Made by a program: the position numbers and the translations under genes
Origin: Clostridia bacterium
Lineage (GTDB): Bacteria; Bacillota; Clostridia; Christensenellales; CAG-917
Assembly: GCA_017461985.1 (NCBI GenBank)
Contig: JAFTSA010000006.1
Location: 110-64,109 of the forward strand
Length of the DNA: 64,000 nt
Direction of reading: 5' to 3'
Shown here: positions 2,407-50,719 of the stretch, piece by piece
Layout of the letters: each line of letters opens with the position of its first letter
Numbering within the stretch: position 1 is the stretch's first letter
The notes under the pieces: model-generated
What the model was told of the DNA's origin: nothing
The model's database searches: none
Seen by the model: the letters and a program-made list of their open reading frames with translations, nothing else

Positions 2407-3116
2407 TTCGTCACCTCCAACACGTAGTCTTTTATTGCTCTTGCAGCGCTCAGCGGTGCGGTTTTTGCAGGTAGAGCGGGGTAGATTTCTGCATCAATGC
2501 CTAGATACTTTGCAAAGCATAGGTTCAATGCAGGCTTTGTGGCAAGATCTATATAAAGGGCAGAGGGGGAGAAGGTGAGCACCGCTTTGTCGTCAATGAT
2601 ATGCTGAGGCACAGTGTTTATCACCGTATCGTATGGGGCAAAATCAAAACTGCCCACAGGGATGACCTCATCGGCAAATGCGTAGGCAGGGCGCAGAGAA
2701 GCCGTCGTTGCCACTGTAAGCCTTTTTACGCCCACTTGACGTAGTATTCGGGCAACCGCAGCGCCCGTACGACCAAAGCCTATGACAAGGACACTCATCT
2801 CGTCAAGTGCCATAAGGGCGTGAGAAAGTATGACGTGGAGTGTGCCTTCCGCAGTCAAACGGGAGTTGCGTGCCTGGAATTTTTCGTCCTCAAGCATATT
2901 GAAATATTTGACGTCAGTGGAGTTGAAATGAGCCTTCACCTCCTCGTCCGCTTTGCCACCTATGACCACTTCGTGGTCTCCCACCTCTGCCACGTTGCCA
3001 AGTCCAAGCAATATGTTTGGCGCATATATATGAGTCCGCTTTTTGGCGGAGAAACCCAGTTCATTTCTCAGGAAAAACATCCTTTCGTCAGTTTGATAAA
3101 TGATGAATTCAGCCAT
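2403..3116 (-). CDS. dpaA: Dipicolinate synthase subunit A (dehydrogenase-like)
   Basis: Rossmann motif VLVIGFGRTGAAVA. Paired with dpaB. Start placed at ATG 3116, preceded by GGAGGA, rather than the longer track ORF start at 3182. Confidence 0.7.
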   Translation of the reverse strand: MAEFIIYQTDERMFFLRNELGFSAKKRTHIYAPNILLGLGNVAEVGDHEVVIGGKADEEVKAHFNSTDVKYFNMLEDEKFQARNSRLTAEGTLHVILSHALMALDEMSVLVIGFGRTGAAVARILRQVGVKRLTVATTASLRPAYAFADEVIPVGSFDFAPYDTVINTVPQHIIDDKAVLTFSPSALYIDLATKPALNLCFAKYLGIDAEIYPALPAKTAPLSAARAIKDYVLEVTK

Positions 3117-5889: not shown

Positions 5890-8800
5890 ATGAGAAAAAC
5901 AGTCAAGACTTTACTTATTTTGCTTTTGGTGACCTTGTTCACCTGTGTTTTCGTGGCCTGTGGCGAAGTTGAAGCCGAGCCCATTGAAGACGTCCCCCCT
6001 CCCACACACGTGGGCGGCAACGGCTCTAATAGTGGTGATGGCGGAAGCGGTGACGGTGGCGATGGCGGTGACGGCGGAAACGTTGACGTCGCTCCTGTAG
6101 ACCCCACCAGCGGAACACCGGTGTATTTGACTTTCTCCTATTTGAAGCAAGCACCCTCAGTGTTCAAGCACATCTACGTTGAGGACTTCGACATTGCAGA
6201 CATCGAATATCACGTGACCTATGAGTGCATCGTCAACGGCAAGAAGCAATATCTTGCAGGGGAAGGCACTCCGCTCTCAATGGATTTGCTGACAAAGGAA
6301 AGTCGTGACAGACTTGAAAACTTCGGCAAAAACGGCGAAATCAGCGGACATTTCTTCATCTTCGTTGAGTACGATGCGGAATACACTGATGCAGAAGGCA
6401 ACGTGAAGACAAAGACCGTTGAAGGCTCATTTGCAATGCATATGAAGACAAAGGCGGCACTCCTTGAGTTTGTCGAATTGAAATTTAAGTTGAACGGCGG
6501 ATATTCACTCTTTGGCAACTACTCAAAAGCAGACGGCGGAACTTCAACCATAGTGGTTGAAAAGGGCCAAACTTGGACTTGGAACGAGTTTATCACCGAT
6601 TTCCCTGTGTACAAAGCAGGCTATGCAATCGACAGCGTGACTGTGGGCGGAAAAACTTATAATGCCTCATCAACCGACACAATCACCATCAAAGACGACG
6701 CAACAATCTCAGTGGGCTGGACTGAAAACGTCATGCCCATCACCTTTGACATCAATCTCCCCGACGGCGTGACAACTTGGGCACCCGTGGACAAAAACCT
6801 CCTCACCAACTTCAACGAAGCCAACGGCACTTGGTCAGTGGACGTTGAAAAGGGTGAAGGATTTATCCCTCGTCCTTCAGTCAACAACATCGCAACAATC
6901 CCCGGCTACACCTTTGCAGGTTGGCGCACCGCAAACGGCACTGTTTGGAATTTCAACAGACGCGCGGGAGACGAAGCATTCACCCTCTACGCAATGTGGA
7001 CAATCCGCACCTACTCAGTGAAGTTTGTCCTTATGGGCGGTGAATTCAATGCAAACAAGGGCTACACCGACACAGCAATCGCAAGCCTCAAAAAAGCAGG
7101 CATTGACGTGAACTATGCTCTCGGCTATGGCCCTGAAGACCCTGAATACGATCCCGATTCCACAAGAGACTTGTTGGCATTCAAGCCCTATATCGTCACC
7201 TTCACTGGAATCCCCTATGGCGCAAATCTTGCAGACTACTTTGCAACTTGCAAGGTGCGTAGTGACAGTGAAGGCCTCATTTCAATCTCAGCAGATCCTG
7301 CAATTCTTGCAACACAAATCACAAAGAGTGAAGGTTGCTACGAGGTTGACGGCTGGTATACCGAGTCATCATACAACGGTGATGAACTCTACACCGCAGG
7401 GGCAGTCACCGAAGACCTTGTCCTCTATCCCAAGTGGTCATTGAGAGAAGGCCTTGGCGAACAAGAACTGAACGAATACTTCGCAAAGAAATTGTTCAAC
7501 TACACAGTGAAGTCAGACGGCACTCTCCGTATTGACCTCATCATCGATAGCTCAGTCAGTGAACTTGTCATCCCCGACAGCGTCTATATTGACGGCAAGA
7601 AATACACCGTCACCGAAATCGGCGAAGGCGCAATCATGAACATCAAGACCCTCATCACCGTTGATTTGAGTGGGGCAAAATCACTGACACGCATTGGAAG
7701 AAACGCCTTTGCATATTGTCCTAACCTCCGCGAAGTCATCATCCCCGACACAGGCCTCAACGTGACCTATATCGGTGAAAACGCATTCCGTGGAACAGAA
7801 TTCATCAACAGCTACAAGACAGCAACCGGTTATGACTTTGCAGTCATCGGCAGTGTGCTTGTCAAGTACGTGGGTGACACCGCAGTGACAGAAATCAATG
7901 TTGATACTACAAACGTGCTGCTTGCGAATGTGGATACAATCGCTCCCGGTGCATTTAGTGAACTGACCGCACTTGAAACTGTCACCATTGGCGATGGCAT
8001 CAAGTTCATCTATGACAAGGCATTCTACAAGGATACCGCTCTCGCAACAGTCCTTGGCGGCGGTGGTCTTGAATATGTTGCATCAGACGCATTTGACCAA
8101 ACCGCATACGTGTCAACACGTCCCGTTGACGACCCTGCAACTCTCACTGACGAAAGCACCTTCCTCCGCATCGGCAGTATCTATTATCGCTACGTAGGCA
8201 CGGGCAAGAGCGCAGAAATCCCCGAAGGAGTCAAGGTCATCGCACCCAACGCATTCTCAACAGGTCACCTCATTGAAAACATCACCTTTGGTGATGCAAG
8301 CCAAATCAAGTCTATCGGCACAGATGCATTTGCCAACACCAAGTGGATCAGTGAAAACCATACAACCGCAGAAACTGGTGACGCAAACACCTTTGTCCAA
8401 GACGGCTTTGTTGTCATCAACGGCATCCTCATTGCAAAACGTGGTAGAGATGCAGTTGTTGAACTGCCTGACCTTGTGAGAGTCATCGCAACAGGGGCAT
8501 TTGACAACGCATACGTCACCAACCTTACAATAACAGCAGACTCACATCTTGAACTGATTGAAAGAGACGCATTCAACGGCGCAAGCAACTTGAAGGCTCT
8601 CAGTTTCATCAATGCAACTGACAACGTATTCGTCAATTTCAATGACGGCGCATTCTCCAACGAAAACGGAGAAGTCATCAACGACGAGTTCAAGATTTAT
8701 CTCTATCAAGCACCCATCACCACCCTCGGCACAGCAGTCAGCGACAGCGACTCAGATGCAGTGAAGGCTTGGAAGGAACTCTACAAGGGTGCAAGCGAAA

Positions 8801-43592: not shown

Positions 43593-43679
43593 AGTCTTTT
43601 CCTTAGGTGGGGCTTTCAGCCCCAGATATAAAAATTATACCATAAGCATTTGCATATTTCAATATGCAATTGTTGTGAT

Positions 43680-43703
43680 AAAAAAGGCACTCGATCGAGT
43701 GCC
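43680..43703 (-). terminator. Intrinsic terminator after the CofE-like gene
   Basis: Perfect palindrome GGCACTCGATCGAGTGCC followed by T6 on the minus strand. Confidence 0.75.
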
Positions 43704-43710
43704 TTGTTTG

Positions 43711-49837: not shown

Positions 49838-49871
49838 AACCGCGCTATTTAGCGCCTGACTTTGCAAACAA

Positions 49872-49899
49872 AGCCACTCACTGAGTGGCTTTTGTTTTG
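49872..49899 (+). terminator. Intrinsic terminator of upp
   Basis: AGCCACTC-ACT-GAGTGGCT followed by a T-rich run. Confidence 0.75.
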
Positions 49900-49900
49900 A

Positions 49901-50083
49901 GTTATATTTTGCTACGCAAAGTTATATTGCCTTACGGCAGTTATATTTGCCTACGGCAAGTGATATTGCTCACTTTGTTCGCAGTTGAGGATATTCTCTC
50001 GACCGCAACTCACCGTAGGTGAATATCACGTCCGTAGGACATATCACTCACGAAGTGAATATAACGCACAAAGTGCATATAAC
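49901..50083. repeat. Inverted array of nine ~18-20-nt modules (GTKATAT + 4-bp-stem mini-hairpin): five forward, four reverse
   Basis: Forward units start at 49901, 49921, 49940, 49960 and 49984. Reverse units are 50011-29, 50030-47, 50048-65 and 50066-83. See the first finding. Confidence 0.85.
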
Positions 50084-50091
50084 TGCGCAAG

Positions 50092-50115
50092 CAAAAAGCC
50101 ACTCGACCGAGTGGC
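50092..50115 (-). terminator. Intrinsic terminator of the rubrerythrin gene
   Basis: GCCACTC-GACC-GAGTGGC with a T-run on the minus strand. Confidence 0.7.
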
Positions 50116-50122
50116 ATTTGTT

Positions 50123-50719
50123 TTATTCCGCGTTGTCGTTTAGGTGCAACATGACAAAGCCTTGTTTTGCTCTGCAGAGAGGGCATTCTTGCCAAGCGGA
50201 TTTGGCGGTGTGCTCATATCCGCAACCTGCACATTTCCACTTCATTGCCACCTTGCGCTTGTACATTGTGCCTGTCTTCATTTGGTTGAACAGATCCTCA
50301 AAGAGCATGCTGTGGCATTTCTCCACCTCTGCGGTCATAAGGAAGAGCCTTTCAATCTCCTTGAAACCCTCTTGCTTTGCCACCTTTGCAAAGGCAGGAT
50401 AGATGTCAAAAGCCTCCTTCTTTTCGTCTTCGCTGGCAAGACGCAAGTTTTCAGTCAAATCCCACTTTTCCTTGAAAGGATAGCCTGCGCAGACCTCCAC
50501 ATTGTCAATGGTTTTGTCGCTGGCTTGTTGGATATAGGTGTAGAACATACGCGCATGGTTGAACTCATTGTACGCCACCTTGTCGATGATTTCAGCAAGG
50601 CAGGCATAACCCTCTTTTCTTGCGCCGTATTCCATAAACTCATATCTTGTCCGTGCTTGGCACTCACCGGCGTACGCCCGTGCCAAATTGTTCAGTGTTT
50701 TGCTTTCCAAAAGTTCCAT
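50123..50719 (-). CDS. rbr: Rubrerythrin
   Basis: 198 aa from ATG 50719 (GGAGG RBS). Ferritin-like diiron motifs (E..A..RY, E..H) plus a C-terminal rubredoxin CAGCG...CPLC. Confidence 0.85.
   Translation of the reverse strand: MELLESKTLNNLARAYAGECQARTRYEFMEYGARKEGYACLAEIIDKVAYNEFNHARMFYTYIQQASDKTIDNVEVCAGYPFKEKWDLTENLRLASEDEKKEAFDIYPAFAKVAKQEGFKEIERLFLMTAEVEKCHSMLFEDLFNQMKTGTMYKRKVAMKWKCAGCGYEHTAKSAWQECPLCRAKQGFVMLHLNDNAE

Follow-up and report, generated by a model that had tools for sequence, protein, structure and literature searches.

The segment at positions 49901–50083 of the window, i.e., the whole 64,000-nucleotide stretch analysed here, is an inverted pair of Gut-1-type arrays that carries no gene and varies among strains. 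Each arm consists of five heptamers, the innermost of which is degenerate, alternating with four mini-hairpins, and ends at a bidirectional intrinsic terminator. The repeat family to which the locus belongs is abundant in gut Christensenellaceae/Clostridia, its insertions cluster in or next to intrinsic terminators, and it is tightly linked to solitary genes for PF05635, the 23S rRNA IVS protein (IVP).

Architecture of the locus and its match to Gut-1

The array is flanked by the stop codons of the convergent genes upp (49837) and rubrerythrin (50123). From left to right, the following features are found:

49870–49898, no strand assigned: terminator copy T1, palindrome AAAGCCACTC-ACT-GAGTGGCTTT, then TGTTTT; bidirectional, touching the outer end of the left arm
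49901–49966, minus strand: left (F) arm, three GTTATAT and one GTGATAT, with perfect hairpins at 49908–49920, 49928–49939 and 49947–49959
49967–49990, minus strand: innermost imperfect hairpin of the left arm (TGCTCACTTTGTTCGCA) and degenerate heptamer GTTGAGG (reverse complement CCTCAAC)
49991–50002, no strand assigned: centre between the arms (ATATTCTCTCGA)
50003–50083, plus strand: right (R) arm, degenerate heptamer CCGCAAC and perfect hairpins at 50010–50022, 50030–50040, 50048–50058 and 50066–50076
50084–50093, plus strand: small extra hairpin TGC-GCAA-GCA, after the last heptamer and before the terminator A-tract
50094–50124, no strand assigned: terminator copy T2, AAAA-GCCACTC-GACC-GAGTGGC-ATTTGTTTT, predicted on both strands

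Within the two inverted arms, heptamers GTKATAT or ATATMAC alternate with seven perfect mini-hairpins, the stems of which are all different. The forward heptamers lie at 49901, 49921 and 49940 (GTTATAT) and at 49960 (GTGATAT), at spacings of 20, 19 and 20; the reverse heptamers lie at 50023 and 50041 (ATATCAC) and at 50059 and 50077 (ATATAAC), at spacings of 18, 18 and 18. All spacers between neighbouring heptamers are perfect hairpins with zero spare bases at the heptamer junctions, namely TTTGC-TAC-GCAAA, TGCC-TTAC-GGCA and TTGCC-TAC-GGCAA in the left arm, and GTCC-GTA-GGAC, TCAC-GAA-GTGA and GCAC-AAA-GTGC in the right arm. A further right-arm hairpin, TCACC-GTA-GGTGA, is flanked by the degenerate heptamer CCGCAAC and the first ATATCAC; thus, the four hairpins of this arm precede, in order, ATATCAC, ATATCAC, ATATAAC and ATATAAC. 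An earlier reading made from the sequence only had described a heptamer/mini-hairpin array boxed in by two terminators, and the sequence is as described, with both flanking terminators predicted. That reading gave all stems as 4 bp, but those of the forward arm are 5, 4 and 5 bp. The mirror order that it saw in the arms is imperfect, since the base at heptamer position 3 is T, T, T, G along the forward arm, as against C, C, A, A along the reverse arm. Its “degenerate central unit” corresponds to the family’s conserved innermost imperfect hairpin, together with a degenerate heptamer ending in AAC. The conserved inner motif, ...AAC-TGCGAGCGAAGCGAGGCA-heptamer, recurs in the distant family members L284, L002 and L009.

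This cluster is not a product of chance. Indeed, eight of the 31 GTKATAT heptamers in the window fall in the 183 bp of the locus, and the remaining 63.8 kb contain the other 23. A detector blind to heptamer identity, which requires identical 7-mers on either side of a perfect hairpin, identified six modules at the locus and four single, unrelated matches in the remaining 64-kb window. Furthermore, of the 164 unique spacers of the family, 80% form a perfect stem (4 bp or longer) anchored at both ends of the spacer, versus 4% of shuffled spacers.

T1, which is predicted to be terminator-like with 10 pairs, and T2 are near-identical direct copies of one palindrome, AAAGCCACTCnnnnGAGTGGCnTTTGTTTT, and both are predicted terminators. 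The direct repeat of ~30–36 bp corresponds to the entire terminator and is imperfect. T2 is the resident bidirectional terminator common to upp and rubrerythrin, and it forms the constant right flank in all strains (L001–L010). At the position of the small hairpin 50084–50093, a longer hairpin, TTTGCAAAAT...ATTTTGCAAA, is found in other strains.

The array had been taken not to be a described family. However, each arm matches the Rfam family RF01706 (Gut-1 RNA), the left arm at 49899–49971 on the plus strand (44.3 bits, E 1.8e-07) and the right arm at 50018–50085 on the minus strand (44.7 bits, E 1.4e-07), and the related locus L255 carries the sequence of one Gut-1 seed from Weinberg 2010; therefore, the locus belongs to a described family. 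Both arms align to positions 1–77 of the Gut-1 model with no non-canonical pairs flagged (E 6.6e-08 and 8.4e-08). Their scores lie under the curated gathering score of 50 bits; Rfam at its gathering threshold misses the locus, and the match appears only with E-value reporting. The related arrays L164 and L242 exceed this score (50.1–57.8 bits). The Gut-1 model and the window arms alike have four heptamers alternating with three covarying hairpins, although the heptamer is GTTATAT/GTGATAT in the window and GUGAAAU in the Gut-1 consensus. Another difference is that Rfam models one arm, on the strand that is disfavoured by the wobble and loop statistics presented below. The published seed alignment includes GUGAUAU-type members, with a second arm in inverted orientation visible in their flanks. 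In the original description by Weinberg et al. 2010, the sole comment is that Gut-1 occurs in human-gut environmental sequences only; no host, function, IVP link or terminator targeting was reported (PMC2864571). Our literature search for a Christensenellaceae repeat or a terminator-loop MITE found nothing.

Family distribution, strain variation and insertion sites

Uniqueness of the locus, which would have spoken against the sequence-only reading, is not observed. Besides the Gut-1 match, one 20-nt module pattern identified more than 115 stretches in GTDB genomes, almost all of them from Christensenellaceae or unclassified Clostridia MAGs of human and ruminant guts. Among the matches listed, single MAGs contain up to seven loci. 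In total, ~210 related loci were compared, comprising 115 GTDB genome loci (among the matches listed), 80 metagenome IVP loci and 16 viral-contig (IMG/VR) IVP loci. Contigs of the window’s species came from ENA metagenome assemblies, some contigs with both IVP and Gut-1 are labelled human gut metagenome, and many relatives are ruminant-gut MAGs. Similarity searches of GenBank phages and PLSDB plasmids gave no similarity to the locus, and a loose three-heptamer pattern on viral contigs was uninformative, the matches listed being AT-rich chance matches.

The usual form of the family is F4-R4, i.e., four forward and four reverse heptamers with ~30–60 nt between the arms. Single arms and one-directional arrays, with 9–11 modules at the longest, are also found. 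Across the family, the mode is three, not four, perfect hairpins per arm, the spacing inside arrays varies from 16 to 27 bp, and the spacer hairpin unit measures 11–17 nt. The heptamer itself differs between elements (GTKATAT, GTGAAAT, GTGAAGT, ATGATGT, GCTAAAT, ATGAATT and others).

The GTDB representative MAG L146 shows 96–97% identity to the window across the flanking genes and is thus assigned to the window’s species. Among strains of this species, the spacer between upp and rubrerythrin is between 207 and 1238 bp long. The array pair of the window is also present in L001 and L008, and L005 has no array and a single terminator. In L006, the window’s left array lies in the opposite orientation against the resident terminator, together with an AT-rich ORF; indeed, the reverse complement of the left arm is identical to the terminator-abutting array of L006. 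A second polymorphic site, at 43677|43678, has no insert in the window or in six of the ten strain contigs fetched. In the other four, it contains an element whose terminal array touches the terminator A-tract, and this clean pair of empty and filled sites shows no target-site duplication.

In other species, elements that we refer to as type A are ~310 bp long without an IVP gene and 640–1300 bp long with one. At least 12 type A copies lie exactly in the loops of A-tract/stem/T-tract terminators, and since these terminators have 12 different stems, the insertions are independent. Type A elements carry their own terminator-like hairpins at the upstream end, and their arms are internal, the element ends lying 100–200 bp beyond them. 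These insertion points were found by boundary-anchored inspection of the flanks, which gave a clear result; a generic search for enclosing helices was not discriminating (flank complementarity of 45% observed versus 37% in the control). The window copy lies between two full terminator palindromes, i.e., beside rather than inside a terminator. Recombination between terminator palindromes could yield this arrangement as well as the inversions between strains. The window copy is an ordinary orphan member of the family in a recombination-prone spacer between convergent genes.

The structured strand and the PF05635 gene

The hairpins are under selection. The family contains 59 different stem sequences, and within one element, pairwise site differences amount to 10% in the heptamers and 54% in the stems. 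The two DNA strands are not equivalent in this respect. When the arms are read on the strand 5'-hairpin-ATATMAC-3', i.e., outward from the centre, stem mismatches are G.T in 14 cases and A.C in none in the first set of loci, and 10 and 3, respectively, in independent loci with other heptamers, which gives 24 versus 3 for both sets. The hairpin is closed by a C-G pair in 91 of 132 cases in the first set and in 99 of 115 in the independent set, and the outward-strand loops (GTA, GAA, AAA, GTAA and GATA) are of the GNA/GNNA type. After elements were oriented by their asymmetric centre, the signature was present in each arm separately, on opposite physical strands. In the window, the structured strand of the left arm is the minus strand, which reads outward as hairpin-ATATAAC with loops GTA, GTAA and GTA; that of the right arm is the plus strand, with C-G-closed loops GTA, GTA, GAA and AAA. 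The minimum-energy fold of the plus strand consists of exactly the four right-arm hairpins and the terminator.

These observations indicate that the structured strand is the outward-reading one, the reverse complement of Rfam’s orientation. The terminator, which is 5' of the motif in the Rfam orientation, is accordingly 3' of it on the outward strand. The excess of G.T mismatches and the C-G closure on this strand imply that the hairpins matter in its single-stranded form. The single-strand structural constraint proposed in the sequence-only reading is therefore borne out by the diversity of the stems and by mismatches that are G.T and not A.C on one strand. Folding energies fail to separate strands or models, every z-score being about −4 to −9.

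The only gene carried by the family encodes a ~115-residue PF05635/TIGR02436 protein, the Avd-like four-helix bundle IVP. It adjoins arrays in 18 of the 115 GTDB loci (among the matches listed). The gene lies between the arms in at least two loci (L207 and L218), 36 nt outside one arm and within the element boundaries in a subfamily of 12 loci, and between two flanking array pairs in L284. Searches from the protein side gave a consistent picture: at least two modules occur within 450 bp of the IVP gene in 41 of 80 metagenome loci, and arrays occur within ~450 bp of it in 7 of 16 loci on viral contigs (IMG/VR). Modules are 28 times denser near the IVP gene than farther off (2.4 versus 0.085 per kb). 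No IVP gene (PF05635/TIGR02436) is present within the 64-kb window.

IVP sequence identity drops as the distance between heptamers grows. This correlation is compatible with cognate recognition, but shared ancestry by itself might give rise to it too. With the IVP profile, matches were obtained to PDB 2RLD (E 7e-44) and 2GSC, in each of which five chains are deposited, and the 2GSC protein is described as five four-helix bundles. PF05635 resembles Avd, and IVP gives a weak match to the Avd family NF033474. Avd forms a pentameric barrel and, in the DGR ribonucleoprotein, makes contact with a dedicated RNA element. Clustering of the ORFs at the ~210 loci revealed no transposase, recombinase, HUH protein or reverse transcriptase beside the arrays; the recurrent ORFs of the 115 genome and 80 metagenome loci are only IVP, common families (ABC transporter, AraC and SDR) and flanking genes of the same species.

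A single sigma-70-like site, typically TTGACT-17-TATATT, is found in 47 of 82 (57%) non-redundant pairs. The innermost hairpin of one arm, the heptamer that follows and the centre make up this site, which points into the other arm. The background expectation for such promoter-like sites is ~8% per direction, and only two pairs have sites both ways. The arm predicted to be transcribed ends at a hairpin or a canonical terminator. Because its stem recurs with the element beside different tRNA genes, this arm-end terminator belongs to the element. Of the 26 IVP-linked pairs, 14 have a predicted arm promoter directed away from IVP, two have one directed toward it and one has both; 10 of the 14 away-pointing promoters belong to one subfamily. 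IVP has its own promoter between the array and its start codon in 18 of the 26, so the arrays are not simply the 5' leader of IVP. No sigma-70-like promoter was predicted in the centre of the window copy.

Possible roles of the arrays

The reading that we prefer, and to which we give roughly even chances, is that each arm is an outward-reading single strand whose hairpin spacers present the heptamers to an IVP oligomer, the window copy being passive. Each arm would function as one outward-read strand, most likely in the form of a small RNA with its start in or close to the centre and its end at the flanking terminator. The hairpins would serve as compact, looped-out spacers that are free in sequence but strict in geometry, and looping them out would set the identical heptamers side by side for a sequence-specific oligomeric binder. 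The candidate binder is the cognate IVP, given that its solved relatives and Avd are pentameric and that Avd binds RNA. An RNA is favoured by the promoter-like sites in 47 of 82 pairs, by arms that touch a terminator at their outer end and by arm promoters that mostly point away from IVP. Counting against it in the window are the centre free of promoter-like sites and the lack of an IVP gene within 64 kb, and on these two grounds we consider the window copy most likely to be a passive, non-autonomous derivative, whose transcription would depend entirely on read-through from upp or rubrerythrin. At most, it could then serve as a trans-acting decoy or add structure between the convergent genes. 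Of the roles suggested in the sequence-only reading, a protein-titrating RNA remains the best functional guess.

More tentatively, Gut-1 may be the cognate single-stranded ligand of solitary IVPs, with about five heptamers wrapping a pentameric barrel. IVP and array together would then be a class of mobile element that lacks a transposase gene and homes to stable hairpin loops, i.e., terminators here and 23S rRNA helices elsewhere, and the orphan arrays would be non-autonomous derivatives or decoys. A fixed rule of five heptamers per pentamer was set aside, and the match is loose, given that three perfect hairpins per arm is the mode. If this cognate-ligand reading is true, Gut-1 is annotated on the wrong strand in Rfam.

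The main rival is a symmetric role in single-stranded DNA mobility, which we regard as possible with a modest probability. Here, the arrays would be ssDNA cis-sites of a mobile element, and the outward strands would be 3'-ended strands or lagging-strand templates. The mini-hairpins and heptamers would serve as recognition sites for IVP and/or a host enzyme at excision or at insertion into extruded terminator hairpins, and the inverted pair would represent the two ends of a miniature element. Since a pair has one predicted promoter but the signature on both arms, the RNA model is less direct than the symmetric DNA model, which better explains the outward-strand signature. It also fits the GNA loops closed by C-G; mini-hairpins of the C(GNA)G type are known chiefly from DNA, where they are exceptionally stable. 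Insertion exactly in terminator loops on 12 occasions, strain-variable presence with one segment inverted between strains, and the IVP gene between the arms in L207 and L218 all agree with such mobility. However, there is no associated transposase, recombinase, HUH or RT gene in ~210 loci, target-site duplication is not consistent, the arms of type A elements are internal, with the ends 100–200 bp beyond, and one-directional arrays of 9–11 modules exist. In addition, the conserved promoter and terminator layout suits expression better.

Recognition of the heptamers in duplex DNA appears improbable. The arrays would then be an operator or iteron field in which IVP or another protein binds the heptamers to autoregulate the IVP promoter, with orphan arrays titrating the protein. 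In many loci, the pair is indeed located immediately upstream of the IVP promoter, and the heptamers are uniform within, and specific to, each element. Yet this model leaves unexplained both the perfect palindromic spacers of arbitrary sequence (80%) that touch the heptamers and the excess of G.T over A.C, 24 to 3, on one strand. The spacing, which ranges from 16 to 27 bp in arrays, also speaks against it. The related suggestion that the 7-mers of the window lie on one DNA face is weak because a period of 18–20 bp does not correspond to a whole number of helical turns.

A branched ladder or cruciform, in which a single RNA or ssDNA spans both arms, the heptamers pair across them and the mini-hairpins project from four-way junctions, is quite unlikely. 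The whole 261 nt does fold far better than shuffles, at −103 kcal/mol (z = −9.2), but any inverted repeat automatically gives a high folding z-score. Three of the four heptamer pairs of the window copy are complementary in mirror order, and pairing across arms had been proposed in the sequence-only reading. That pairing is nevertheless not favoured: the structured strand differs between the arms, the heptamers of the commonest subtype are not complementary position by position (GTGATAT lies opposite ATATAAC), and single arms and one-directional arrays are common. Least credible of all is a REP/BIME-like element moved by a RAYT (IS200-like HUH) transposase, since the family shares with REP/BIME the extragenic setting between convergent genes, the association with terminators, the hairpins with a short conserved motif and the many copies per genome, but no RAYT/HUH or other transposase gene was found in the 2.5–8 kb flanks of the 115 + 80 + 16 loci, the associated gene is actually PF05635, and the unit is a heptamer plus a perfect hairpin of 11–17 nt in arrays of 4–5, not GTAG plus an imperfect palindrome of 20–40 nt.

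Several other classes of repeat were considered and set aside. MITE or transposon ends with multiple transposase sites (Tn7, Mu and Tn402 type) are not compatible with the internal arms of type A, the lack of target-site duplication at the clean pair of empty and filled sites and the lack of a transposase at the ~210 loci. In contrast to a CRISPR array, conservation is restricted to 7 nt and the variable portion is palindromic, and no cas neighbours are present at the ~210 loci. Type III antitoxin repeats, which are tandem units of ~36 nt before a toxin gene, were rejected because no toxN-like neighbours occur at the same loci. The integron attC core GTTRRRY does not fit, and the heptads of omega-protein operators are contiguous, whereas those here are spaced by hairpins. 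A DnaA-box-like TTATCCACA is present in type A, yet a multi-copy element is not a replication origin.

Returning to the reading of IVP as the partner of single-stranded arrays, the closest known system is the 23S rRNA IVS with its protein (S23p/IVP). Family members carry the PF05635 gene, and type A copies occupy the loop of a stable hairpin, with the insert enclosed by the host stem. We know of no heptamer-hairpin arrays described in rRNA IVSs. The Gut-1 elements differ in that they target intrinsic terminators and sites downstream of tRNA genes rather than helices 25/45, and the window copy is gene-less and beside a terminator. Horizontal transfer is the assumed mode of spread of IVSs, and their protein is described as having no known function (PMC11270868). 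IVP also shares a homologous four-helix-bundle fold with Avd of the DGRs, but no reverse transcriptase, template repeat or variable repeat is found near IVP genes, and the Avd-binding RNA is not a heptamer-hairpin array.

Regularly spaced short motifs are shown to an oligomeric protein by CsrB/RsmZ (GGA hairpins), TRAP-binding (G/U)AG repeats and ToxI. The likeness to these systems is one of working principle only, in that repeats stand beside a partner gene and orphan copies could be decoys. There is no sequence or protein homology, and in Gut-1 the spacers are obligate hairpins, the arrays are inverted pairs and the partner is a four-helix bundle. REP/BIME, IS1397/ISKpn1, which insert into REP loops, and class C group II introns, which insert after terminators, are likewise extragenic and hairpin-based or target hairpins or terminators; however, no RAYT, IS3-type transposase or intron RT/ribozyme is found here, and the unit structure differs.

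Within the literature searched and to our knowledge, the host clade, the reversed structured strand, the PF05635 partnership and the homing to terminator loops are undescribed for this family. Gut-1 has been in Rfam since 2010 without a known host, partner or function, and the present analysis places it in Christensenellaceae/Clostridia genomes. PF05635 proteins are widespread, and we are aware of no function for them outside DGRs. Collectively, these findings provide a testable hypothesis on the ligands of IVS proteins and on the route by which IVS-like inserts may enter hairpin loops.

A second insertion site and its terminators

Strain variation is not confined to the spacer between the convergent upp and rubrerythrin genes. 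A second variable site was found at 43666–43710 of the window, with the insertion point at 43677|43678, and is flanked by a DUF4432-like gene on one side and an F420-ligase-like gene on the other. The site is unoccupied in the window, and it carries a 110–285 bp insert in four strain contigs of the same species (L002, L003, L006, and L009). The end of the insert is a Gut-1-type array, i.e., heptamers alternating with mini-hairpins, placed directly against a terminator, AAAAGGCACTC...GAGTGCCTTTT.

Terminators with nearly the same stem (GCCACTC/GAGTGGC, GGCACTC/GAGTGCC, or GCACTC/GAGTGC) are present at separate loci of this species, namely at 49870–49898, 50094–50124, and 43680–43710 of the window and in the upp–rubrerythrin spacers of L003 and L009. 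Their loops vary by strain (AATC, GACC, GAAC, AATT, ACT, and GTT). Since the stems are nearly alike across loci while the loops differ among strains, this pattern suggests that copying or exchange acts on the terminators themselves.

Other occupants of the upp–rubrerythrin region

Directly 3′ of the upp stop codon, one to three tandem units of ~130 bp per strain are located in L002–L007, L009, and L010 (about 6640–7100). Each unit is bordered by inverted repeats, either AAAAAGGCACTATTTGG ... CCAAATATTGCCTTTTT or AAAACCGCGCTATTTAG ... CTAAATATCGCGGTTTT, which enclose a terminator-like hairpin, CCCACGG...CCGTGGGATTTTT. In the window, the left repeat at 49838–49869 is all that remains of a unit, and it contains the palindrome GCGCTATTTAGCGC (49842–49855). 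These units look like a separate MITE-like family occupying the same spot as the Gut-1-type pair.

The spacer also contains a segment of ~330 bp whose orientation in L002 and L007 is opposite to that in L003 and L009. It comprises GGAGGAGCAGCGGCGACGA, a C/G-rich motif centred on CACGTG, and mini-hairpins with GTA loops; an Rfam scan of L002 at gathering thresholds gave no match to it. Some strains carry an AT-rich ORF as spacer cargo, with a hydrophobic segment at its N-terminus, which encodes 151 aa in L006 (7249–7704) and is truncated to 106 aa in L010 (7108–7428); neither copy has a Pfam match. Beyond rubrerythrin, two strains have an additional ORF of 287–297 aa between this gene and an 86-aa gene (L007, 7999–8892; L009, 7894–8757). 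No Pfam hits are on record for this ORF, and it is absent from the window.

Heptamers outside the locus and variant arrays

Outside the array locus, GTKATAT occurs 23 times in the 64-kb window, whereas shuffling the entire window with dinucleotide frequencies preserved gives an expectation of ~6.6. None of these 23 sites has a hairpin module, and the excess may reflect composition or codon usage.

In the elements of other species that are inserted in terminator loops (type A), the interval separating the first heptamer from the upstream terminator hairpin contains a conserved TTATCCACA (or TTGTCCACA), which resembles a DnaA box (L157, about 1640–1660; L137, L168, and L204). Other related loci have long one-directional arrays of 7–11 modules (L242, 577–1749; L164, 70–192 and 4135–4296; L268, about 2850–3030), some of which show a ~37-nt super-repeat equal to two modules. 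One such array immediately precedes a thymidylate synthase promoter, and another immediately follows a gene for the PF05635 protein (23S rRNA IVS protein).

Within the window's species, the L004 spacer (about 7150–7450) holds a nested array pair with the heptamer ATGAAAT / AATTCAT, adjoining an ATATAAC array. Elements of different heptamer classes therefore accumulate at one locus.
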